Translations under genes and position numbers: made by a program
The notes under the pieces: model-generated
Database searches by the model: none
Told to the model about the DNA's origin: nothing
Seen by the model: the letters and a program-made list of their open reading frames with translations, nothing else
Assembly: GCF_017348835.2 (NCBI RefSeq)
Contig: NZ_CP071375.1
Length of the DNA stretch: 64,000 bases
From: Escherichia coli
GTDB taxonomy: Bacteria > Pseudomonadota > Gammaproteobacteria > Enterobacterales > Enterobacteriaceae
Direction: 5' to 3' (one strand)
Shown: piece by piece, positions 1,880 to 64,000 of the stretch
How positions within the stretch are numbered: position 1 is the stretch's first letter
Layout of the letters: every line of letters starts with the position of its first letter

Positions 1880-2090
1880 GATTCTTCGCCTTTGGTTTGT
1901 TTTCCGCTCGTTATCAAAGCGTAAAATATAATGACCACCATTCGAATCTGTATGCAAACTAAATGTTTGTCAAATGTTAAATTGAGTTTGCAAAAATGAA
2001 AATCCACTGCTAGATTGAAAAAATATTGAACATAAAGGTCATTTAAACCGCAGTAATGGCGATAATTTAGTCCACTTAGTGAGATTGAGC
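1880..2090. promoter_or_regulatory. divergent puuA / puuD promoter-operator region with repeated AAAATAT-ATGA-CA-like motifs (putative PuuR sites)
   Basis: AT-rich divergent intergenic region; motif copies near 1921-1935 and 2020-2032. Confidence 0.45.
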
Positions 2091-2855
2091 ATGGAAAATA
2101 TAATGAACAATCCGGTTATCGGTGTCGTAATGTGCAGGAACAGGCTTAAGGGGCATGCGACCCAGACTCTGCAAGAAAAGTACCTGAATGCCATCATCCA
2201 TGCAGGCGGCTTGCCAATTGCGTTACCACATGCGCTGGCGGAACCGTCCTTACTTGAACAACTTTTGCCGAAACTCGATGGCATTTATCTTCCTGGTAGT
2301 CCCAGCAATGTGCAGCCGCACCTATATGGTGAAAACGGCGATGAGCCTGACGCCGATCCCGGGCGTGATCTTCTGAGCATGGCGTTAATTAATGCCGCAC
2401 TCGAAAGGCGCATCCCCATTTTCGCCATCTGCCGGGGGTTACAGGAACTGGTGGTGGCAACCGGTGGTTCGTTGCATCGCAAGCTGTGCGAACAGCCTGA
2501 ATTGCTGGAACATCGGGAAGATCCCGAACTGCCGGTGGAACAGCAATATGCGCCGTCGCACGAAGTTCAGGTTGAAGAGGGGGGATTACTGTCTGCATTG
2601 TTACCTGAATGTAGCAACTTTTGGGTAAACTCTCTGCATGGACAAGGGGCGAAGGTCGTTAGCCCGCAGTTGCGTGTTGAAGCTCGCTCGCCGGATGGCC
2701 TGGTTGAGGCGGTGAGCGTCATCAATCATCCTTTCGCGCTGGGCGTACAGTGGCACCCGGAATGGAACAGTAGCGAGTACGCGCTTTCGCGTATATTGTT
2801 CGAGGGCTTTATCACCGCTTGTCAGCACCATATCGCTGAAAAACAGCGACTCTGA
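2091..2855 (+). CDS. puuD: gamma-glutamyl-gamma-aminobutyrate hydrolase
   Basis: 254-aa product starting MENIMNNPVIGVVM; class-I glutamine amidotransferase-like. Confidence 0.95.
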   Translation: MENIMNNPVIGVVMCRNRLKGHATQTLQEKYLNAIIHAGGLPIALPHALAEPSLLEQLLPKLDGIYLPGSPSNVQPHLYGENGDEPDADPGRDLLSMALINAALERRIPIFAICRGLQELVVATGGSLHRKLCEQPELLEHREDPELPVEQQYAPSHEVQVEEGGLLSALLPECSNFWVNSLHGQGAKVVSPQLRVEARSPDGLVEAVSVINHPFALGVQWHPEWNSSEYALSRILFEGFITACQHHIAEKQRL

Positions 2856-2881: not shown

Positions 2882-3439
2882 ATGAGTGATGAGGGACTGG
2901 CGCCAGGAAAACGCTTGTCGGAAATCCGCCAGCAGCAGGGGCTTTCACAACGTCGTGCCGCCGAACTCTCCGGGCTGACTCACAGTGCTATCAGTACGAT
3001 AGAACAGGATAAAGTCAGCCCTGCCATCAGTACGCTGCAAAAGCTGCTGAAGGTGTATGGTCTGTCACTCTCGGAATTCTTTTCCGAGCCGGAAAAACCT
3101 GATGAGCCGCAGGTCGTCATTAATCAGGACGATTTAATTGAGATGGGCAGTCAGGGTGTGTCAATGAAGCTGGTTCATAACGGTAACCCGAATCGCACGC
3201 TGGCGATGATCTTTGAAACGTACCAGCCTGGCACAACCACTGGGGAAAGAATTAAGCATCAGGGTGAGGAAATAGGCACTGTACTGGAAGGTGAAATTGT
3301 TCTGACGATTAATGGTCAGGATTACCACCTCGTCGCGGGGCAAAGTTATGCCATTAATACCGGCATCCCGCACAGTTTCAGTAATACGTCGGCAGGTATT
3401 TGCCGAATTATCAGCGCCCATACGCCCACCACGTTTTAA
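2882..3439 (+). CDS. puuR: HTH-type repressor of the puu operon
   Basis: 185 aa, N-terminal HTH plus C-terminal cupin, sequence recognised. Confidence 0.95.
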   Translation: MSDEGLAPGKRLSEIRQQQGLSQRRAAELSGLTHSAISTIEQDKVSPAISTLQKLLKVYGLSLSEFFSEPEKPDEPQVVINQDDLIEMGSQGVSMKLVHNGNPNRTLAMIFETYQPGTTTGERIKHQGEEIGTVLEGEIVLTINGQDYHLVAGQSYAINTGIPHSFSNTSAGICRIISAHTPTTF

Positions 3440-3588
3440 TCTTTTTGTTCTGTAAGCCGGGTAAGCGCAATGCGCCCGGCAATCCATAAAGAATGTCGCC
3501 AGAAATAAACGGGCATACGGCCCGGGGATCTCTGCGCCCCGACGTTCACAAACTGCATATATCTGATAGACGTGAAACAGGAGTCATA

Positions 3589-37287: not shown

Positions 37288-38319
37288 TTAGCGACCCTGT
37301 TCCGGCGGTGTAATGTTATCCATATACAGCGTCTGGCTGGGGAAGGCAAAGTCCGCGCCGTGTGACTGTACAATATCGATAATCTTCAAATAAACGTCTT
37401 GCTGTGCAGCAAGCCACTCAGCCCATACCGTGGTTTTGGTAAAGCAATAAACCATAATATTCAATGACGAGTCAGCAAACTGGTTGAAATAAACCAGTAA
37501 GGTTTGTCGCTGGTCGATGGCCGGGTGATTTTTCAGCATCTCACGTACGGCTTCGACGATAACGCCCACTTTTGCCGCATCCTCATAACGTAAACCAATG
37601 GTCGTGGTAATGCGGCGGTTGGTCATTCGTCCTGGGTTTTCTACGCTGATCGACGAAAACAGCGAGTTCGGTACGTACAATGGACGATTATCAAAGGTCG
37701 TAATTTTGGTAATTCGCCAGCCAATTTCCGCTACTGTACCTTCGATATTTCTGTCCGGTGAACGGATCCAGTCGCCAATACTGAAAGGACGGTCGAAATA
37801 GAGCATGATCCCGGAAAAGAAATTACTCAGAATATCTTTACCGGCCATACCGACAGCCAGACCACCAATACCACCAAAGGTCAGCAAGCCAGAAAGGCTC
37901 ATGCCGAAATGTTCGCCATAAAGCAGAACAAGCACCACAATAATGGTGATTTTGATAATGCGCGACATAATCCGCGCACTGGTGATATCGCGACCTTTTT
38001 TAATCTGCTGTTTTTCAAACTGATTAATCAGCAAAAATAGCTTAATCGTCAGAATAACCGCAATCAGGGACGTACAGATAAAATCGATAACGCCTGGGGT
38101 GATAAATTTGAGTTTATAGTTTTCTATAACATAATTAATAATGCTACCAACAGCACTGATAATTATGGTGTAGATTAAAAATTGCACCGCATGGAATAAA
38201 AAACCTTTTCTTTTACGATTTCCGCGGCGAAACCAAAAGCTCATCAGAATCAATGCTGCGCAGCTACCGAAAATAATGACCAGATTAAGCGCATTATTTG
38301 TAAACAGTTCAGCGATCAT
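37288..38319 (-). CDS. ynaI: low-conductance mechanosensitive channel (MscS family)
   Basis: 343 aa. Confidence 0.9.
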
Positions 38320-53197: not shown

Positions 53198-54433
53198 CTA
53201 CGATAACCGCGCATTCAACATGGCTATCTGTTCGTCGTTCATGTCATCAATCCACATACCGTAAATTTCATACACCATCTGCGCAGTTTCATGCCCCATT
53301 TGGCTGGCTATAAATGCCGGGTTCGCTCCTGCCGTCAACAGCCAGCAGGCAAAAGTATGTCGCGTATGGTACGGATTACGGCGGCGAATACCAGCACGTT
53401 TTACTGCTGCATTCCACCTTGCCCCCAAACTGCTTACCGAGTAATAAGGTTTTTGTTTTCCGTTACACACCCTGGGCATGAAAACAAAATGCAGTTTTTG
53501 CTTTTCGGTTCTGCCGTACTCCCGATGATAAAAGGTGATTTCGCTTTTGCGATGATGCCCGGTCAGTTTGTATTGCTCCTTCAGTGCTTCAAGAGCAGGC
53601 TGCAGTAGTGTTACTGTTCGGATCCCGGCATTTGTTTTTGGGGGACCGAACATATCAAGTATCGTCAGGTTTCTTCTGACATTCACTATTCCCTTTTCGA
53701 GATCCACATCCTCCCACGCCAGAGCTGCCAGTTCCCCGTGACGAAGTCCTGAGTAAACGGCAAATTTCCACAAGTTCTGGCTCTGTCCTTTTTCACTTTC
53801 CATTAATGCATTGAATTCTGTTTTAGATAACGGATCAGGCTTTATTCTGTTTCGCTGTAATTTTTTTACTCCTTCAAATGGTTTGGTTGATATAAATCCC
53901 GACTGATACGCAAAACGCAACAGCGAACAGAGCAGGGCGATATAGTTATCAACTGTGCGCACGGTTCTTCCTTTTTTGTTGGATCTTGGATTATCCAGGT
54001 AAAGCGTTTCTCCATGCAGCAGTTCATTCCGGTAGTTTAAGATATCGCTATAACGAATATGTGATATCGGGGTACTTTCACAAATTATTATTCTGAGTGT
54101 TTTTAATTGTGATTTCGTTTTCTTCATTGTGTTTGTTGTTAACTCTGTCTCTTTAATTTTTGTCCAGATATCACAAAGCTCTCCGAACGTTTTTATGACT
54201 CTCGTTGTCACCATTTTTGCCCCAGTGCTGGACTGGGGAAAACGTCTTAAATACTCAAATTCACCGGAGTTTATTTCATGAACTATCAGCGCTCTTAAAT
54301 TTCCGGCCTTTTTAATATTACTGTTTGTAATCTCCCAGCCTTTTAATGTTTCCCGACATCGTTTTCCTCGAAACATGAACCAGATGCGAATGTATCTACC
54401 TCTAATCTCGACACCTGTTGGTAATTTAGACAT
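53198..54433 (-). CDS. intR: Rac-type prophage integrase (tyrosine recombinase)
   Basis: 411 aa, sequence recognised; ends 51 bp from the ttcA start. Confidence 0.9.
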   Translation of the reverse strand: MSKLPTGVEIRGRYIRIWFMFRGKRCRETLKGWEITNSNIKKAGNLRALIVHEINSGEFEYLRRFPQSSTGAKMVTTRVIKTFGELCDIWTKIKETELTTNTMKKTKSQLKTLRIIICESTPISHIRYSDILNYRNELLHGETLYLDNPRSNKKGRTVRTVDNYIALLCSLLRFAYQSGFISTKPFEGVKKLQRNRIKPDPLSKTEFNALMESEKGQSQNLWKFAVYSGLRHGELAALAWEDVDLEKGIVNVRRNLTILDMFGPPKTNAGIRTVTLLQPALEALKEQYKLTGHHRKSEITFYHREYGRTEKQKLHFVFMPRVCNGKQKPYYSVSSLGARWNAAVKRAGIRRRNPYHTRHTFACWLLTAGANPAFIASQMGHETAQMVYEIYGMWIDDMNDEQIAMLNARLS

Positions 54434-54434
54434 A

Positions 54435-54650
54435 TCATGAGTCTTTGATAAACTGATTTATCTTTGGATAGTTGTACCAGATAATCCCTCGTTTGCTGTC
54501 TGGCTTACCTAAAGGAGATACTCGTTTGAAGTGGAAGCCCTCCACCCAACAGTTCTGGCGGTATGCTTCAATTTGTCTGGCCCCCAGACCAGTGCGAAGC
54601 ATCAGGCCGTATTCAACCATCCACTCTTCATTAAAGATTACTTGTGCCAT
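54435..54650 (-). CDS. xisR: prophage excisionase-like protein
   Basis: 71 aa from [15 protein letters not shown], immediately upstream of intR. Confidence 0.75.
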
Positions 54651-54728
54651 CGCATCACCTCTGGCCGGCGCCAATGTTAGACTGAAATTGACGCCCGATG
54701 TTGATTATTAATAATCAGCTATGAAGTT

Positions 54729-54938
54729 TTAATTTGAATACAATGCAATTCTCGAGGACTGAAGTTTCTCGCAATTAAAATTTATCAGTTTTACTTTCTG
54801 CTCTCTGGAAACGCCTGCTTCTTTTTTACCTGAGAGCATTTTTTCGCATTCTGATTTCGTTAGTTTAGATTTTGAATATCTTGTCCAGTTAGTAGGAGTG
54901 CCACCTTCCTTTTCAATAGTGGCGGTAATTTTATACAT
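54729..54938 (-). CDS. ydaC: Rac prophage small protein YdaC (DUF1187)
   Basis: 69 aa from MYKITATIEKEGG. Confidence 0.75.
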   Translation of the reverse strand: MYKITATIEKEGGTPTNWTRYSKSKLTKSECEKMLSGKKEAGVSREQKVKLINFNCEKLQSSRIALYSN

Positions 54939-55009
54939 GAACACCTCCATTATTATTTCCAGTGGTTTGAACCGCCCCGGGTTTCCTGGAGAGTGTTTTA
55001 TCTGTGAAC

Positions 55010-55897
55010 TCAGGCTGCCAGATCATTATTTCCGATGGAAGCATAATAAGCTTTTTCTGCTTCTGCCGGAGGAATATGGCCCAGCCTTTCCAGCAATCGT
55101 CGATTGTTATACCAGTCCACCCACGTGAGTGTGGCCAGTTCCACTTCTGTCCGGTTTTTCCAGCTCTTACGGTGTATTACCTCCGCTTTGTAAAGACCAT
55201 TGATGCTCTCAGCCATCGCGTTGTCATACGAGTCGCCAGTACTCCCTGTTGATGCCAGTAATCCGGCTTCCTTAAGCCGCTGCGTGTAGGCCAGCGATAC
55301 ATACTGAGAACCTTTATCACTGTGATGGATTGTGCCGGACGGCCGACGGGCCCACAACGCCTGCTCCAGTGCATCCAGCACGAATGTTGTTTCCATGGAT
55401 GATGAGACCTGCCATCCCACGATGTATCCGGCGAACACATCAATGATGAACGCCACATAAACGAAGCCCTGCCATGTGCTTACCCAGGTAAAATCAGCCA
55501 CCCACAACTGGTCTGGACGTTCTGCCACGAACTGACGGTTTACGCGGTCGCATGCGGCAACGGCTTTCCGGCTGACGGTAGTGCGGACCTTTTTACCCCG
55601 GAGAACACCGGCAAGTCCCATAACTGCCATGAGACGTGCCACAGTGCATCTGGCCACTCTGATACCTTCCCGTAACAACTGACGCCAGACTTTACGCACA
55701 CCGTATACCTGGTGATTTTCATCGTATACGCGCTGTATCTCTTTCTTCAGCCAGTCATCGTGCTGCGCACGGGCACTGCGTTTATCCGGATGATGTCGCT
55801 GTTGCTGACAATGGTAATACGTTGACGGGGCAATATGCAGTTCGCTGCATACCGGTCCGACCCCGTACTGCTCACGCAGCTTATCCAGCAGTGGCAT
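55010..55897 (-). CDS. IS3-family transposase OrfB (DDE integrase domain)
   Basis: 295-aa frame with rve-type catalytic region; start overlaps the orfA stop (TAATG) next to an A-rich slippery stretch. Confidence 0.9.
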   Translation of the reverse strand: MPLLDKLREQYGVGPVCSELHIAPSTYYHCQQQRHHPDKRSARAQHDDWLKKEIQRVYDENHQVYGVRKVWRQLLREGIRVARCTVARLMAVMGLAGVLRGKKVRTTVSRKAVAACDRVNRQFVAERPDQLWVADFTWVSTWQGFVYVAFIIDVFAGYIVGWQVSSSMETTFVLDALEQALWARRPSGTIHHSDKGSQYVSLAYTQRLKEAGLLASTGSTGDSYDNAMAESINGLYKAEVIHRKSWKNRTEVELATLTWVDWYNNRRLLERLGHIPPAEAEKAYYASIGNNDLAA

Positions 55898-56223
55898 TAT
55901 TTTTTCCAGAGGCGGTCGAACTCCGCCTTCGCAAAATAAGCGGAAGCCTGGCGAAGGATATCGTTACTGCGGCGCAGTTCACGATTTTCACGTTCCAGCT
56001 CTTTCAGACGCTGACGTTCAGCGGTGGTGAGTCCACCATCACCACTCCCGGTATCCCGCTCATGCTGGCGAACCCAGACACGCAGAGTCTCCGGCGTACA
56101 GCCAATCTTTGGGGCAATGGAACAAATTGCCGCCCACTGTGAGTCATATTCATCCTGACTTTCCAGAACCATACGAATCGCCCGCTGACGGACTTCGGGG
56201 GAAAAACGAGTATTTTTAGTCAT
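55897..56223 (-). CDS. IS3-family transposase OrfA (HTH)
   Basis: 108 aa [42 protein letters not shown]... recognised as IS629/IS1203-type OrfA. Confidence 0.9.
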
Positions 56224-56277
56224 CCTGTTTACCTCTTTCTCAGGGAGTTTAGTCTCCAGGATTTCCGGGGCGGTTCA

Positions 56278-56438
56278 GTTCGTTTATTCCATCTTTCGAG
56301 TGCTTCTTTTTCACTTCCACCATAACCGGTTCGGGATTCGCATCCGTTACACTTCGCTCGGTAATATCCTGAAATGGCTTTCACCGTTACTGATGGACAA
56401 CCACAAAATGGACATGGTTTAACATTGTCATATCTCAT
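56278..56438 (-). pseudogene. ralR: restriction-alleviation protein RalR (Lar), 3' end interrupted by the IS element
   Basis: Frame MRYDNVKPCPFCGCPSVTVKAISGYYRAKCNGCESRTGYGGSEKEALERWNKR runs into the IS terminal repeat, after which 15 IS-encoded codons follow. Confidence 0.75.
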
Positions 56439-56494
56439 AATTTTTCTCATAAAAAATATTTCAAGTTGGCGGTGCATTACACCGCCAGGCTGAA

Positions 56495-57304
56495 TTATTC
56501 CTCTGAATTATCGATTACACTGTATTCCCCGGTTAATACAGAGGAATCTGCAGGATCGATTGTCAGTGGTTCCTTTTCATCCATTGATACTGCACGCTGG
56601 ATCTCAATTGATACGGGCAGATATTTGAACAGGCGACGAATAGCCGTTTTCTTTGCCATTTCTTCCCAGTGAGTTACCCACGGCCCGTTATTACCAGCTT
56701 TACTCAGGCTGCGCACCAGCTCAATCTGTTTGCGCGTCATAACTTCAAACTGAGTACCTCCGTCTTTCAGTCTTGCGACAGCATAGACGTGGGTAACCGG
56801 GGCATCTTCGTTTTCTCCCGGGCGGTGTATTAACTTTTCATCAAGGCCAAATTCGAAGCTAAACTCGTCACCTTCACGGACAACACGGGCTGACAGGCTG
56901 GCGATTTGACCAGAACGGCGAGCCAGATCAATCATGCCGCGATAGCCAATGATTAGCTGAACGTTCTTTTTACCGCTCTTTTCGTTTTTATTACCAAAAG
57001 GCAGTAAATATGCATGACCGAGGGCGCTACCTGGCTCAAGTCCGAGCTGTGAACACTGTACGATCGCACTGACAAAACTCATAGTGTCACAGTTTCCTAA
57101 CGCCGGAACTTTACGAATTTCTGTGGTGGCGATACGGATCATACGTTCAGCCGTCATATGGCGTGGAAGAGCTGCTGCCAGTTGCTCTTTCATTGATGGC
57201 TGGTTAATAAAACTAATCACGTCGCTATTTTTAACTGCTGCTGGTGCACGGTTTCCCTGAGTTTTTTGCAGATCGGCTTTTGCGATTGGTGGTTGCTTAG
57301 TCAT
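56495..57304 (-). CDS. recT: recombinase RecT (single-strand annealing protein)
   Basis: 269 aa from [18 protein letters not shown], sequence recognised. Confidence 0.95.
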
Positions 57305-58436
57305 TTGCATATTCCTTAGCCCAGCGGGGCAGTGATAATGTCTTAATAGCTGGCCATTCATCGGTATTCAGGCAGTCAGACAGGGTTCGCAGATTGCGGT
57401 GATATTCCTGTTGACCTGCCAGTTTTGCTTCTTCGCCCATCATGAAAATTTCAACCGGATAACGTCCGCATTCAATAGTTGTGCTGGCAACCAGAAAAAC
57501 GAAAGTTGGCTGCACTCCAAACTGTGCTTCATAACCGTCACTGTAGAATGCATCCTGAACGTGATAGCGGTAGTCGTAATAAGCGGTTTTGAATCGTTGA
57601 ATATCCGCCGTAGTTTTCACGTCCATGATCCAGTGAAATTCAGGGATAATTTTGTCCGGACGGCACCGACACAAAATTCCTGTTTCAGGATCTTCCCAGT
57701 AAATTGATGATTCAGCGTGTCCGGCGCTTTCAACAAGCCATTGCCCCAGCGGCAAAGCCATAACGCTTTGATACATGAGTTCAATTTTCCGGCCTTCTTC
57801 CGCAGTGATAACCGTTTTTCCTGTGCTTGCGCATTCCATCAGAAACGCTTTCTCTTCTTCTTTTCCGGCGTTTGTACGGCGGTTAAATTCAGGTGCTACG
57901 ATAAAGCGGTTACTGAATTCTTCCGGTTCAAGTACCCGGCAGTGGAAAGCAGTTCCTAAATCGAGCGTTTTTGTCTTTGTGGTGTCCACGGGGGCATTTT
58001 TACGCCACAAATATAGTGCCGGAGTATCAGCAATGTCATCGAGCTGAGACTTACTGATACCGGGACCCGCGTGGTAATTCTCATTCGAAATTCCGTAATA
58101 AATACCTGGCTCTATGTCTTCTACGATTACGGGATCTGCGACTTCGCCAGTTTCATCACTGCAATCGCGATGCGGATCGCTGCCAGCATTCTCATTGTGC
58201 GGATGTTCAGCGCCTTCCATTTCCTCCGGATCATTTTCCTTAGCTTCAACCTGACTCTCTTCATCGAATGTTTCCTGGTATGTTGCGTCGCCCATCACCG
58301 CACCACAGTCAGGGCAGTTATCCCCGCCAGTCTGGCCGCAGGCATTGCAGGCTATTTCCGGTTCCTGTTGCACTACTGGCTCAGGTTGATTCATATCTGG
58401 GCTGGTTTTTTCCGTTTCTGGCTGGTTCTGGTACAC
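57297..58436 (-). CDS. recE: exonuclease VIII RecE, C-terminal nuclease portion only (5'-truncated)
   Basis: 379-aa frame ending ...[11 protein letters not shown] and overlapping the recT start; K-12 RecE is 866 aa; frame open upstream only to a stop at 58521-58523; first start-like codon is GTG. Confidence 0.8.
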
Positions 58437-58474
58437 ACAATCGCGAGTCTGGATCCCCTTACCTGGCTGACACC

Positions 58475-59227
58475 ATGCATTTGTCAGCAGAGGAGCATGG
58501 TGCGTATTTGTTGCTGATGTTCAATTACTGGCAAACAGGAAAGCCAATACCTAAAAACAGGCTGGCAAAAATTGCCCGTCTGACTAACGAGCGATGGGCT
58601 GATGTTGAACCATCCTTGCAGGAGTTTTTTTGCGATAACGGCGAGGAATGGGTGCATCTTCGGATTGAGGAAGATCTGGCATCAGTCAGGGAAAAATTAA
58701 CCAAAAAATCAGCCGCAGGAAAAGCATCTGTTCAGGCCAGAAGAAGCAGAAAGGAAGCAGATGTTCAAACAAAACAAGAGAGAAATTTAACAGGTGTTCA
58801 AACAGATGTTGAAGTGGTGTTTGAACATGATGTCAACACAAAGGCAACTAATAAAGATACAGATAAAGATCTAAAAACAGATCCCCCCCTAAATCCCCCC
58901 CGGGGGAATCGAGGTGTCAAAAAGTTTGACCCTCTGGATATTGCTTTGCCGAACTGGATTTCTGTCTCGCTTTGGCGTGAGTGGGTTGAATTTCGCCAGG
59001 CATTGCGAAAACCGATTCGAACGGAGCAGGGCGCTAACGGGGCGATACGGGAGCTGGAAAAATTCCGCCAGCAGGGTTTTTCACCTGAGCAGGTGATTCG
59101 ACACAGCATCGCCAATGAATACCAGGGCTTGTTCGCGCCAAAAGGTGTTCGACCTGAGACGTTACTCCGACAGGTTAACACCGTCTCGTTACCGGATAGT
59201 GCGATCCCGCCAGGCTTCAGGGGGTAA
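58475..59227 (+). CDS. ydaU: prophage replication protein, DUF1376 plus DnaT-like C-terminal domain (YdaU-like)
   Basis: 250 aa from [19 protein letters not shown]; upstream in-frame residues (SPYLADT) still look like DUF1376, suggesting the true N-terminus is missing. Confidence 0.6.
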
Positions 59228-59233
59228 CTGACC

Positions 59234-59980
59234 ATGAAAAATATTGCGGCAGGCGGCATTCTTGAACGTATCCGCAGACTGGCCCCGCCACATGTAACCG
59301 CCCCATTCAAAACGGTAGCGGAGTGGCGCGAGTGGCAACTTTCCGAAGGCCAGAAACGTTGTGAGGAGATCAACCGTCAGAATCGTCAGTTGCGGGTGGA
59401 AAAAATTCTGAATCGCTCCGGCATCCAGCCGTTGCACCGCAAATGCTCGTTTTCGAATTACCAGGTGCAGAACGAAGGGCAGCGATACGCGTTGAGTCAG
59501 GCGAAATCCATCGCTGATGAACTGATGACCGGGTGTACAAATTTTGCGTTCAGCGGAAAACCTGGTACCGGAAAAAACCATCTGGCGGCGGCTATCGGGA
59601 ATCGCCTGCTGAAAGATGGCCAGACAGTGATTGTGGTTACCGTGGCTGATGTCATGAGTGCCCTACACGCCAGCTATGACGACGGGCAATCAGGCGAAAA
59701 ATTTTTGCGGGAACTGTGCCAAGTGGATCTGCTGGTTCTTGATGAAATTGGCATTCAGCGCGAGACAAAAAACGAGCAGGTGGTGCTGCACCAGATTGTT
59801 GATCGCCGGACAGCGTCGATGCGCAGCGTGGGGATGCTGACAAACCTGAATTATGAGGCCATGAAAACATTGCTCGGCGAGAGGATTATGGATCGCATGA
59901 CCATGAACGGCGGGCGATGGGTGAATTTTAACTGGGAGAGCTGGCGTCCGAATGTCGTCCAGCCAGGAATTGCGAAGTAA
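59234..59980 (+). CDS. ydaV: DnaC-like replication protein (helicase loader homolog)
   Basis: 248 aa, colinear with DnaC as I recall it ([17 protein letters not shown], Walker [26 protein letters not shown]). Confidence 0.85.
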
Positions 59981-60002
59981 TTTTTACCGGGAGAAAAATT
60001 TA

Positions 60003-60764
60003 ATGGAGACTGTTTTTGACGCACTGAAAGCAATGGGAAAAGCTACATCCATAGAACTTGCTGCGCGACTTGATATCAGCCGTGAAGAAGTGCTGAACGA
60101 ACTATGGGAACTGAAAAAGGCTGGTTTCGTTGATAAAAGCGCGTACACCTGGCGTGTGGCTGATAACAACGTTCAGCAGGAACAGCCAGCGCCGGCAGAA
60201 CTGCCGGAAGAAACTACCACGGCAACAGTCGCGAAAATTTCAGAGAGCGATTTAACTGCGACGATTGAACAACGTGGTCCACTAACTGCGGATGAACTGG
60301 CTACGTTGTTCGGTACCACATCCCGCAAAGTGGCTTCAACGCTGGCAATGGCAATCAGCAAAGCTCGTCTGATTCGCGTTAATCAGAACGGTAAATTTCG
60401 TTACTGCATGCCGGGCGGTAATTTACCAGCAGAGCCGAAAGCTGCATCGGTAGCGGAAACAGATGGTAAAGCCTTTCCTCAGCTAGCCGGTGTTGCGTTA
60501 CCAGTACAGGAAGCTGCAACACAGGAAGATATTAAAACAGAAACTGTGGCGGACATTGTGCAGTCGTTGCCATCGTTTACTGAAACGCAAGCGGATAACC
60601 TGATTTTACCATCGCTGCATATGGCAAACCGTGAACTGCGTCGGGCGAAAAATCATGTCCAGAAGTGGGAGCGAGTCTGCGCCGCGCTGCGGGAGCTGAA
60701 CAAGCACCGGGATATTGTTCGACAGATTACTGATTCTTCCCGCCGTGTTGTATCGGAAAAGTGA
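60003..60764 (+). CDS. hypothetical prophage protein with two winged-helix-like segments
   Basis: 253 aa from [45 protein letters not shown]; ATG at 60003 with GGGAGA RBS; the longer ORF-track start at 59952 overlaps ydaV. Confidence 0.6.
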
Positions 60765-60779
60765 TTGCCGGAGGCGCTT

Positions 60780-61211
60780 ATGGCAAAAGTATTTACACAA
60801 GAAGAGCGGGAAAAAATTAAAGGGCAGGTTGTTGAACTAGTACGCCGGAGTGGGCGCGAGACGTTACGGCAACTGGAAGCCAAGACAGGTGCGACAAGAT
60901 ATCTGATGAGCGTTCTCGCCAGAGAGCTGGTTGCCAGTGGCGATGTATACAACTCTGGTTACGGGTTATTCCCGTCTGAACAGGCTCGTAAGGACTGGCA
61001 AAATGCCCGCAAAAAACTATCTAGGGCAAAGGTGAAGAAACCATCTGTGGTTGATCCGGACCTTATCTGGTCATTACCAGACGGAGAAATACGCCGCTAC
61101 GACAGGCGTCTGAACATAATCTGTCGCGAGTGCCGGAAGAGCGAAGTTATGCAGCGTGTGCTGGCGTTTTATCAGAATGGTTTTCGAGAGAGGCTTGGAG
61201 ATCAGGGATGA
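60780..61211 (+). CDS. hypothetical prophage protein
   Basis: 143 aa from MAKVFTQEEREKIKGQVVELVRR; GGAGG RBS 5-6 nt upstream of the ATG at 60780. Confidence 0.55.
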   Translation: MAKVFTQEEREKIKGQVVELVRRSGRETLRQLEAKTGATRYLMSVLARELVASGDVYNSGYGLFPSEQARKDWQNARKKLSRAKVKKPSVVDPDLIWSLPDGEIRRYDRRLNIICRECRKSEVMQRVLAFYQNGFRERLGDQG

Positions 61212-61404
61212 ATAGAACGATGAAGGATGGAAGCTACATATTCTCGGTACTAAGATTTATTTTTCTGACACAAAATGACCATTTGGCGTTACATAATCCC
61301 AAAAAAACGTATCAAAAATCTCAAAATGCGTTACGATTAGAGAGTATTTTGATTCTGCGTGCTCATTTTTTGATTGCTGTGGCTTTTTGTTGTGGGAGTG
61401 TTGA

Positions 61405-62559
61405 ATGGATTATTTATCAGAAGTGTTAAAAATCATTGAAGGTGCAACAAAGGCAAATGCTTCGATGGCTAGTAATTATGCTGGGTTGCTGGCAGATAAG
61501 CTCGAACAAAAAGGGGAGGTCAAGCAAGCCAGAATGATAAGAGAAAGGTTGCTTAGAGCTCCCCAGGCGTTGGCAGGAGCTCAAAGGGCTGGAGGTGGGA
61601 TATCTCTGGGCTCATTACCGGTAGATATTGATAGTCGACTCAACACTGTTGATGTCAGTTATCCTAAATTAGACAGTTCAGAGATTTTTCTGCCTGCAGC
61701 AATCAGTACCCGTGTTGAAGAGTTTATCACTAATGTTCAACGTTATGATGAGTTTGTTAAAGCTGATGCAGCATTGCCGAGTCGTATGCTCGTGTATGGA
61801 AAGCCAGGAACAGGTAAGACTATGTTATCTAAGTACATCGCTACCCGCTTAGATTTTCCACTTCTTACAGTGCGTTGCGATACTTTGATTAGTAGTTTAT
61901 TGGGACAAACCAGCAAAAATCTTAGACAGGTTTTCGATTATGTAATGCAGAGGCCATCAGTGCTTTTTTTAGACGAATTTGATGCTTTAGCTGGAGCAAG
62001 AGGTAATGAGAGAGATATAGGTGAGCTTCAGCGAGTTGTCATTTCACTATTGCAGAATATGGATGCGGCATCAGAGGATACGGTAATTATTGCCTCAACT
62101 AACCATGAGCAACTTCTGGATCCTGCAATCTGGAGGCGATTTAGCTTCAGAATTCCAATGCCTCTGCCTGACATACATCAGAGAGAGTTAATTTGGAAAA
62201 ATCGTTTAAAGAATATGATATGTAGCGATCTAGATTTAAGTGATTTATCAAGAAAATCGGAAGGATTATCCGGAGCAATAATTGAACAGGTGAGCTTGGA
62301 TGCACGTAGGGATGCAGTTATTGAAGGTGCAAGTGTGATAAATCACCACAAATTGTATAGGCGTTTGTATCTTGCTCAATCGCTTATGGAAGGTGTAAAT
62401 TTAAGCACTTACGAAGATGAAATTCGTTGGTTACGTTCTAAAGATAAAAAATTATTTTCTATCAGAGTTCTTGCTAATTTGTACAAACTTACATCAAGAG
62501 TAATTTCAAACATTCTGAAGGAGTCAGGAGCATATGAGCAGAAGGGGTACACAGTTTAG
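61405..62559 (+). CDS. classic-clade AAA ATPase with ~125-aa N-terminal extension; first gene of the ATPase-protease cassette
   Basis: 384 aa; Walker A GKPGTGKT (61798-61821), Walker B VLFLDEFD (D190/E191 at 61972-61977), sensor-1 IIASTN, arginine-finger region DPAIWRRF; GGGAG RBS; AT-rich. Confidence 0.85.
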   Translation: MDYLSEVLKIIEGATKANASMASNYAGLLADKLEQKGEVKQARMIRERLLRAPQALAGAQRAGGGISLGSLPVDIDSRLNTVDVSYPKLDSSEIFLPAAISTRVEEFITNVQRYDEFVKADAALPSRMLVYGKPGTGKTMLSKYIATRLDFPLLTVRCDTLISSLLGQTSKNLRQVFDYVMQRPSVLFLDEFDALAGARGNERDIGELQRVVISLLQNMDAASEDTVIIASTNHEQLLDPAIWRRFSFRIPMPLPDIHQRELIWKNRLKNMICSDLDLSDLSRKSEGLSGAIIEQVSLDARRDAVIEGASVINHHKLYRRLYLAQSLMEGVNLSTYEDEIRWLRSKDKKLFSIRVLANLYKLTSRVISNILKESGAYEQKGYTV

Positions 62560-64000
62560 TAACGCAAAAGTTACAAACCCAACGTTAAGAATCCCTTTTT
62601 CCAGTAGTGACTTGGGTGCAATAGTAAACGCTGGCGGTGGGGCAAAGGTATTGGTTGATGTAACAGCCGAATATAGACAAGGGCTAGTAAGAAATTTAAC
62701 AACCAGTAAACATTATTTAGAATCCAAACTTTCAGAGTACCCTGGAAGCTTGGGTACTTTGGTTTTCAAATTAAGAGACCAGGGAATAGCCAAAACGCAT
62801 AGGCCGAACAAAATTGCTCAAGAGGCTGGATTGCAAAATGCCGGTCATGCCAAAATAGATGAAATGTTGGTTGCTGCTCATGCCGGCTGTTTTGACGTAT
62901 TAGAGTCAGTCATTTTAAATCGGAATATTAAAGCGATTTTGGCTAATCTAAGCGCGATTGAGCGCATTGAACCTTGGGATGAGAATAGGAAGGTTCCGGG
63001 AGGCACTGATGGTTTGTTTGAATCATCAAACATCCTTGTACGACTATTTGAGTACACAGGTGAAGATGCAACTTACAACAACTATGAAAACGTTATTTCT
63101 ATATTAGAACAATACGGAGTTAAATATGATGAAATTAGACAAAAATGTGGTCTTCCCTTATTAAGGATAATGGATTTATCCCCAAGTGATAGATATATAT
63201 TAGACATTCTCATTGATTACCCGGGTATAAGAACGTTAATTCCAGAACCAAAATATTCAGCATTCCCGGTTAGTGTAAGTGATTCTGTTGGCATTGAAAC
63301 AAATAGCTTTCCCGTACCATCAGAAGAATTACCCATTGTTGCTGTATTTGACACTGGGGTAAGCCCCATCGCGGCAACAATTACTCCTTGGGTAGTGAGT
63401 AGGGAAACATACGTAATTCCTCCTGATACGAGTTATGAACATGGGACTATGGTGTCTTCATTGATATCAGGCGCTCATTTTTTAAATGACAATCATCCAT
63501 GGATTCCTGATACAAAATCTAAAATCCATGATGTTTGTGCTTTAGATGAAAATGGATCTTATATATCAGATTTAATTCTGAGGCTAGCAGATGCTGTAAA
63601 TAAAAGACCAGATATAAAAGTCTGGAATTTGTCTTTGGGAGGCGGACCATGTAATGAGCAGATGTTTAGTGATTTTGCGATGGAGTTAGATCGGCTCAGC
63701 GATAAATTTGGTATTTTGTTTGTAGTTGCTGCAGGTAATTATGTAGATGAACCTATACGTACATGGCCAAATCCTGATCCGCTTGGAGGTGCTGATTTAA
63801 TTTCCTCTCCTGGAGAGTCAGTCCGAGCACTAACAGTTGGTTCAGTTTCTCATATGGAAGCTAATGATGCTTTAAGTGAAATTGGAACACCGACACCATA
63901 TACTCGTCGTGGCCCTGGTCCTGTATTTACTCCAAAGCCAGATATAATCCATGCTGGCGGTGGGGTTCATAGACCTTGGAATGTAGGAGCAAGCAGTTTA
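62534..64000 (+). CDS. subtilisin-like (S8) serine peptidase, partial (runs off window end); second gene of the cassette
   Basis: ATG at 62534 overlaps the ATPase 3' end by 26 nt; catalytic Asp in VAVFDTG (63350-63352), His in YEHGTMVSS (63440-63442), S8 motifs VWNLSLGG and VVAAGN (Asn at 63737-63739); catalytic Ser expected beyond 64000; ~270 aa precede the catalytic core. Confidence 0.8.
   Translation, partial: MSRRGTQFSNAKVTNPTLRIPFSSSDLGAIVNAGGGAKVLVDVTAEYRQGLVRNLTTSKHYLESKLSEYPGSLGTLVFKLRDQGIAKTHRPNKIAQEAGLQNAGHAKIDEMLVAAHAGCFDVLESVILNRNIKAILANLSAIERIEPWDENRKVPGGTDGLFESSNILVRLFEYTGEDATYNNYENVISILEQYGVKYDEIRQKCGLPLLRIMDLSPSDRYILDILIDYPGIRTLIPEPKYSAFPVSVSDSVGIETNSFPVPSEELPIVAVFDTGVSPIAATITPWVVSRETYVIPPDTSYEHGTMVSSLISGAHFLNDNHPWIPDTKSKIHDVCALDENGSYISDLILRLADAVNKRPDIKVWNLSLGGGPCNEQMFSDFAMELDRLSDKFGILFVVAAGNYVDEPIRTWPNPDPLGGADLISSPGESVRALTVGSVSHMEANDALSEIGTPTPYTRRGPGPVFTPKPDIIHAGGGVHRPWNVGASSL

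Follow-up and report, generated by a model that had tools for sequence, protein, structure and literature searches.

The closest known counterpart of the regulatory region analyzed here is the set of PuuR operators in Escherichia coli K-12. The spacer between the divergent genes puuA and puuD is stated to contain four PuuR DNA-binding motifs (PMC9951944, citing Nemoto et al. 2012, J Bacteriol 194:3437), and repression of both puuA and puuD by PuuR is described in two reports (PMC9951944, PMC9283627). When putrescine is sensed, PuuR is reported to leave the DNA (PMC7901475, citing Nemoto et al. 2012). Protection or a gel shift of this DNA by purified PuuR, with relief by putrescine, is credited to Nemoto et al. 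2012 in the summaries of PMC7901475 and PMC9951944. According to PMC7901475, XRE-cupin regulators act as dimers on palindromes that adjoin their own genes. Other regulators have also been connected with this spacer: ArcA is reported to repress puuA and puuDR directly (PMC3798270), and sites for ArcA and FNR have been described between puuA and puuD (PMC9397018). The element that we delineate below is this known, ordinary PuuR regulatory element, whose control through multiple spacer sites was published in 2012.

The window, by which we mean the whole 64-kb stretch of DNA that was analyzed, carries the E. coli puu (putrescine utilisation) cluster at its left end, with puuC, puuB, and puuE on the plus strand like puuD and puuR (Table 1). 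The PuuR protein encoded in the window is 100% identical to that of K-12 and displays two Pfam domains, HTH_3 (residues 13-66, E 6e-15) and Cupin_2 (residues 111-178, E 6e-19). The puuA-puuD spacer is 211 bp long. Aligned over 261 positions, flanks included, it shows three differences from K-12 MG1655 (99% identity). These differences, at window positions 2003, 2048, and 2078, leave the motif copies unaffected, and the experimental literature on K-12 is therefore directly applicable to this locus. A 601-nt spacer probe found matches in 4371 of 5426 complete E. coli genomes, with 100% identity to strain PE164, and only nine complete genomes carry a puuA-puuD region at least 99% identical to the version in the window. 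The other 1055 genomes gave no megablast match to the region, which suggests that roughly one-fifth of E. coli lack the puu cluster or carry a highly divergent one. A further difference between strains lies downstream of the regulatory region, where K-12 MG1655 has a 125-bp insertion between puuR and puuC (L001:5515-5639) that the window does not have (position 3485); the inserted sequence (…AGTGAGCGAATCCCGATGAGCTTACTCAGGTAAGTGATTCGGGGGAGCGAAC…) presumably belongs with the ERIC/IRU intergenic repeats, which it resembles.

A preliminary description of the spacer had pointed to two similar A-rich motifs. Both strings are present: the second, AAAATATTGAACA, is found at 2020-2032, exactly where it had been placed, and the first, AAAATATAATGACCA, starts two nucleotides away from the position given for it, at 1923-1937 and not 1921-1935. 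A third and better copy, AAAATATAATGAACA, which had been missed, is located at 2095-2109 over puuD codons 2-7 and is assigned to the same family by the repeat finder. Compared as 15-mers, the two noted copies match at 12 of 15 positions, and a non-overlapping direct pair of 15-mers with at least 12/15 matches arose in 888 of 2000 dinucleotide-preserving shuffles of 1880-2120 (44%). By itself, this pair is not beyond chance in a region of 67% A+T, and to that extent the motifs could be a by-product of an AT-rich divergent promoter. The third copy argues against that view: it matches the first at 14 of 15 positions, a value equalled in 6 of 2000 shuffles (0.3%), and a three-copy family at 12/15 or better appeared in 21 of 2000 (~1%). 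The 15-mer with at most two mismatches occurs three times in the 64-kb window, every time in the puuA-puuD spacer, against 0.16 occurrences expected, and none of 100 shuffles reached three. The three-copy motif family as a whole is non-random. The published 15-bp PuuR consensus is reported to be AAAATATAATGAACA, to which the copies within O1, O2, and O4 (Table 1) match at 14, 13, and 15 of 15 positions, respectively, the last being the exact copy at 2095-2109. Neither this consensus nor the actual site strings were matched in a search of the accessible full texts, and the PuuO, biosensor, and puuA start-site literature searched yielded no base-level PuuR site information.

We scanned representative bacterial genomes for PuuR and retrieved 80 loci, ranging from Escherichia through Klebsiella, Citrobacter, Enterobacter, and Serratia to Rahnella. 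Fifty-nine of these loci, together with the window, provided 60 divergent puuA-puuD spacers of 205-239 bp, mostly 211-213 bp. A PWM was trained on the orthologues of the three strong copies (O1, O2, and O4), and the orthologues of the weak fourth site, O3, were left out of the training. The resulting site is an 18-bp imperfect dyad built of the half-sites TGKwAAAwA and TAwTGwmCA, and the noted A-rich repeat unit corresponds to its right-hand 13-15 nt. When the PWM was correlated with its reverse complement, the value peaked at 0.53 in the central register and was 0.30 or less elsewhere, a symmetry that would fit a dimeric HTH protein, as expected. The dyad symmetry is weak in single E. coli sites, where 4-5 of 9 half-site positions match, and reaches 7 of 9 in the version of the site present in Serratia and Rahnella, TGGGCAATA followed by TATTTTCCA. 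Nearly all 60 loci have PWM hits at the same four offsets from the puuD ATG, about -170, -75, -34, and +1, with the O1-O2 spacing constant at 95 bp even in the longer spacers. Outside the regulatory region, hits of at least 8 bits number 21 in 535 kb, or 3.9e-5 per position.

The same motif is also found in spacers that are not orthologous to that of the window. In paralogous Serratia loci, puuA faces puuR directly, without puuD; in these loci and in those of Rahnella and Pantoea (8.5 kb each), nearly all hits of at least 10 bits, and all hits above 13 bits, fall in the spacer adjoining the puuR homologue. The motif is co-conserved with puuR across genomes, non-orthologous spacers included. 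This second divergent puuA-puuR pair, with a spacer of ~395 bp, is present in many Serratia genomes (L058, L059, L062, L064-L066, L068, and L070-L075), and its spacers contain two or three dyad copies, including the near-perfect palindrome TGGGCAATATATTTTCCA. One locus of the collection, L025, is on a contig labelled Chryseobacterium sp. 18061 and has an enterobacterial-type puu locus with a PuuR 95% identical to that of E. coli and a Citrobacter-like spacer; this assembly is probably mislabelled or contaminated.

Table 1. Features of the puuA-puuD region in window coordinates. There is some circularity in the PWM scores of O1, O2, and O4, whose own orthologues formed the training set. Reporter fragments of PMC9951944 were placed on the window from the primers in its supplement, and their repression values were obtained in Corynebacterium, not E. 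coli.
Feature	Position	Strand	Description	Value
puuA	461-1879	minus	glutamate-putrescine ligase; regulated gene	
puuD	2091-2855	plus	gamma-glutamyl-GABA hydrolase; regulated gene, first gene of puuDR	
puuR	2882-3439	plus	repressor, XRE-type HTH and cupin domain	
O1, predicted PuuR operator	1920-1937		CGTAAAATATAATGACCA; puuA side; contains first noted motif (1923-1937)	PWM 24.8 bits
O2, predicted PuuR operator	2015-2032		TTGAAAAAATATTGAACA; contains second noted motif (2020-2032)	PWM 24.1 bits
O3, candidate PuuR operator	2057-2074		TGGCGATAATTTAGTCCA; degenerate in Escherichia	PWM 3.6 bits in window
O4, predicted PuuR operator	2092-2109		TGGAAAATATAATGAACA; over puuD codons 1-7; best copy	PWM 26.4 bits
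Putative puuD promoter	1988-2016	plus	-35 TTGCAA (1988-1993), 17-nt spacer, extended -10 TGcTAGATT (2008-2016); predicted start near 2023	
Putative puuA promoter region	1928-1973	minus	two candidates, read from sequence	
puuA promoter candidate A	1973-1945	minus	TTGACA (1973-1968), 17 nt, CAGATT (1950-1945)	
puuA promoter candidate B	1957-1928	minus	TTGCAT (1957-1952), 18 nt, CATTAT (1933-1928)	
Conserved central block	1953-1994		TGCAAACTAAATGTTTGTCAAATGTTAAATTGAGTTTGCAAAA; no PuuR motif	mean identity to window 0.86 (60-spacer alignment)
Four motif positions	as O1-O4		60-spacer alignment	mean identity to window 0.81-0.88
Conserved stretch	2006-2014		60-spacer alignment	mean identity to window 0.92
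Remaining spacer			60-spacer alignment	mean identity to window 0.54
Full-length puuD promoter fragment	1880-2128		all four sites (PMC9951944)	PuuR repression 36-fold
Short puuD promoter fragment	~1948-2090		O2 and O3 only (PMC9951944)	PuuR repression 6.9-fold
Full-length puuA promoter fragment	1880-2115		all four sites (PMC9951944)	PuuR repression ~2.2-fold
Short puuA promoter fragment	~1880-2003		O1 only (PMC9951944)	PuuR repression ~1.95-fold

All strong copies are found in the spacer or at the beginnings of puuA and puuD, and puuR begins 0.8-1 kb downstream of them. Adding 1,359,029 to a window coordinate gives the K-12 coordinate, which puts O1 to O4 at 1360949-1360966, 1361044-1361061, 1361086-1361103, and 1361121-1361138, respectively. 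Equivalents of O1 and of O4 score at least 15 bits in 60 of 60 orthologous spacers, and those of O2 do so in 54 of 60 (at least 8 bits in 58 of 60), with the proviso that common descent and overlapping promoter elements contribute to such conservation among orthologues and that the loci are not independent. The core of O1, AAATATAATG.CCAC, and the string AAATATTGAAC in O2 are nearly invariant across the loci. These details bear on the possibility that the copies are generic -10-like TATAAT hexamers with UP-like A-tracts, serving no dedicated regulator. Copies 1 and 3 do each contain a perfect TATAAT, and O1 overlaps a candidate puuA -10, as that possibility would have it; against it, conservation extends beyond the A/T core into the flanking TG and CCA/ACA bases. 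Moreover, O4, which lies inside the puuD coding sequence, reads CAATATATTTGAC in other genera, its TATAAT being changed to ATATAT or TATATT in most of them with the flanks kept, and so the hexamer itself is not the conserved part. Within O4, puuD codons 3-4, AAT ATA (Asn-Ile), are invariant in all loci, and the codons beside them vary (MENIMN in Escherichia versus MGNIFD elsewhere) in step with the operator half-sites (L002-L060; window 2091-2111).

O3 is evident only by comparison with other genera, with 3.6 bits in Escherichia versus 8-18 bits elsewhere. At this position, -34 from the puuD ATG, 48 of 60 loci score at least 8 bits (median 9.4), and the mean identity of the site is 0.85 versus 0.54 for unassigned spacer. 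The Klebsiella site reads TGGTCATAATTTAGTCCA, and equivalents of the O3 position, 42 nt after the O2 equivalent, are strong (21-24.5 bits) in Pantoea (L078) and Serratia (L064 and L072). We suggest that O3 may be the fourth published PuuR site. Two other stretches, 1991-2005 and 1971-1985, each with 8 of 15 matches to the 15-mer, were considered for this role, and neither gave a PWM hit of at least 2 bits in the window or a hit recurring elsewhere; 2057-2074 was preferred because a recurrent hit across loci is present only there. O3 in Escherichia includes a -10-like GATAAT and might alternatively be a promoter element. With O3 provisionally assigned in this way, the PWM hits at four fixed offsets agree with the four reported motifs, and the two motifs of the preliminary description account for two of the four sites and for part of the motif, the third copy and the weak fourth having escaped it.

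Elsewhere in the window, the next-best PWM matches score 16.1 bits (54870-54887, in the Rac prophage gene rcbA) and 14.3 bits (38265-38282, within ynaI near its 5' end). Both are intragenic, score far below the 24-26 bits of the strong copies, and have no polyamine genes near them; we rejected them as PuuR targets and regard them as probably chance matches. The right end of the window (53198-64000) is a Rac-type prophage remnant with intR, xisR, rcbA, ralR, and recT. It also contains the anti-phage genes iteA and iteS, a nuclease gene that is truncated, and an IS3-family insertion (55010-56223).

A promoter and terminator scan of 1800-2200 returned nothing, and the promoters in Table 1 are therefore our own reading of the sequence, backed by the conservation pattern. 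The hexamers of the putative puuD promoter have 8 of 12 matches, just below the scanner threshold of 9, and its -35 and -10 boxes are conserved in the 60 loci around an intervening spacer of variable sequence and constant length. O2 overlaps the end of this -10 and the predicted start site. On the puuA side, the TTGACA of candidate A is invariant across loci; O1 would cover approximately +2 to +19 if candidate A is used and -17 to +2 if candidate B is used. The puuA start is predicted near 1938 or 1921. The promoter positions and the assignment of sites to promoters are, accordingly, to be taken as provisional. The same scan bears on the sigma-70 -10/UP reading of the motif, which we rejected: the scanner found no promoter in 1800-2200, and the O4 hexamer is replaced in most genera.

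No other strongly conserved part of the spacer is as long as the central block at 1953-1994, which spans the back-to-back -35 boxes of both putative promoters. The block contains TGTT-type repeats ~11 bp apart and a 12-nt inverted repeat, I1 (TGCAAACTAAAT / ATTGAGTTTGCA at 1953-1964/1981-1992, 16 nt apart). The block is probably an ArcA target and possibly one of FNR too. A structured RNA in the puuA/puuD leader was also considered and rejected, as there was no curated Rfam covariance-model match in 1700-2300, where the scan gave one sub-threshold chance match only (CRISPR-DR57, 17.5 bits versus a gathering score of 39, E 0.54).

Published reporter data can be laid over this map. The 'full-length' reporters described in PMC9951944 reach by design into puuD, to 2115 and 2128, and take in O4; this extension into the coding start fits O4 as one recognised PuuR site.

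In the explanation that we hold with high confidence, both noted motifs are parts of two of four PuuR operators, through which PuuR represses the divergent genes and putrescine induces them. Each operator would be an 18-bp imperfect dyad, the noted A-rich 13-15-mer being its centre and better-conserved right half, and would be bound by the XRE-HTH/cupin protein PuuR encoded 0.8 kb downstream of the sites. O1 would lie either on the puuA core promoter or immediately downstream of it, O2 on the -10 end and predicted start point of the puuD promoter, and O3 and O4 in the transcribed leader and first puuD codons, at about +35 and +70. When putrescine is scarce, PuuR would occupy these sites, presumably in dimeric form, and prevent RNA polymerase from binding or escaping at the two divergent promoters. 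PuuR would also repress its own synthesis, since puuR is part of the puuDR operon. Putrescine bound in the cupin domain would then release PuuR from the DNA, leading to induction of the pathway. The present analysis established the sites as non-random, conserved, and regularly spaced dyads beside puuR, and PuuR binding to the spacer, repression, and release by putrescine are taken from the literature. The proposal in the preliminary description that PuuR represses both divergent promoters through related operator copies is supported by the identity of the locus, by conservation, and by the citing literature. One operator per promoter is too simple a scheme for four sites, three of which are on the puuD side.

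A more elaborate reading of the same array is possible, although we consider it rather doubtful as a whole. The 18-bp dyads would form a four-copy array constrained in its spacing, in which PuuR shuts both promoters by cooperative looping or a higher-order complex. Measured between centres, O1 is 95 bp from O2 and O2 is 42 bp from O3, both distances being near whole helical turns, and the three sites would tentatively share one face of the helix, with O4 embedded in the first seven codons of puuD. On this reading, O3 would have decayed in Escherichia, leading to looser repression of puuD, and O4 would explain the invariant codons 3-4. Cooperation between the sites is conjectural: neither the present analysis nor the literature accessible to us contained evidence of PuuR cooperativity or DNA looping.

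Turning to explanations that do without PuuR on these copies, the motifs could be sites for another regulator (ArcA, FNR, sigma-S, an NtrC-related factor, or an A/T-preferring nucleoid protein), with PuuR bound to other bases of the spacer. The direct repression of puuA and puuDR by ArcA and the ArcA and FNR sites described in the spacer (PMC3798270, PMC9397018) lend this idea some weight, as does the finding that the most conserved stretch of the spacer, the central block, is not a motif copy; in addition, the PuuR site positions given here are predictions. Several observations speak for PuuR instead. First, the ArcA-like TGTT repeats are in the separate central block, outside the motif copies. 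Second, the motif is a dyad, as a site for an XRE dimer should be, and tracks puuR homologues through different gene arrangements. Third, the four copies equal in number the four PuuR motifs reported in PMC9951944, where the reporters were lengthened on purpose to take in the puuD-start copy and repression was lost on removing O1 and O4 (from 36-fold to 6.9-fold for puuD; Table 1). This dyad form, together with the link to puuR and the truncation results from the biosensor work, makes a different regulator on the motif copies unlikely. The reading of the copies as chance or generic -10 elements is weaker still and already largely refuted by the shuffling statistics, by the conservation of the flanks, and by the presence of the same motif in non-orthologous spacers adjoining puuR paralogues.

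Four PuuR operators thus remain the preferred reading, and its place among known systems can be stated briefly. The element matters little as a discovery: putrescine biosensors already make use of the control that PuuR exerts on puuA and puuD. What changes is the annotation, which now has four sites instead of two, with exact coordinates and with one site inside the puuD coding start. The 18-bp dyad model and the fixed spacing may serve as a guide for biosensor promoter design and suggest a simple test of site cooperation.

Multi-operator divergent control, as exerted by lambda CI at OR or by GalR and DeoR, which have sites within the first gene, resembles the present array only in its layout. 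The shared features are related operators distributed over ~190 bp, some of them on core promoters and one in the first codons of the downstream gene. A closer relationship is found in PauR and other local repressors of the XRE-cupin type in Pseudomonas aeruginosa, as presented in PMC7901475. These proteins share HTH_3 and Cupin_2 with PuuR; both PauR and PuuR repress genes for polyamine catabolism by gamma-glutamylation; and both kinds of regulator are dimers on palindromes in the intergenic region beside their own gene, released by a substrate of the pathway. PauR, compared with PuuR here by description, has 29 genes at 12 loci under its control, and that source calls its consensus quite different from those of its relatives. 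Unlike PauR, PuuR has strong sites in only one spacer of the 64-kb window. The K-12 PuuR operators (Nemoto et al. 2012), known as 'PuuO' in putrescine biosensors, are the nearest system of all: the genes, the spacer sequence, and the repressor are all shared with the window, and the four motifs reported there correspond in number to the four found here. Nothing substantive differs between the two, apart from the description of the site, which is given here as an 18-bp imperfect dyad in place of a 15-mer, and the position of the weak fourth site, which the comparative evidence puts at 2057-2074.
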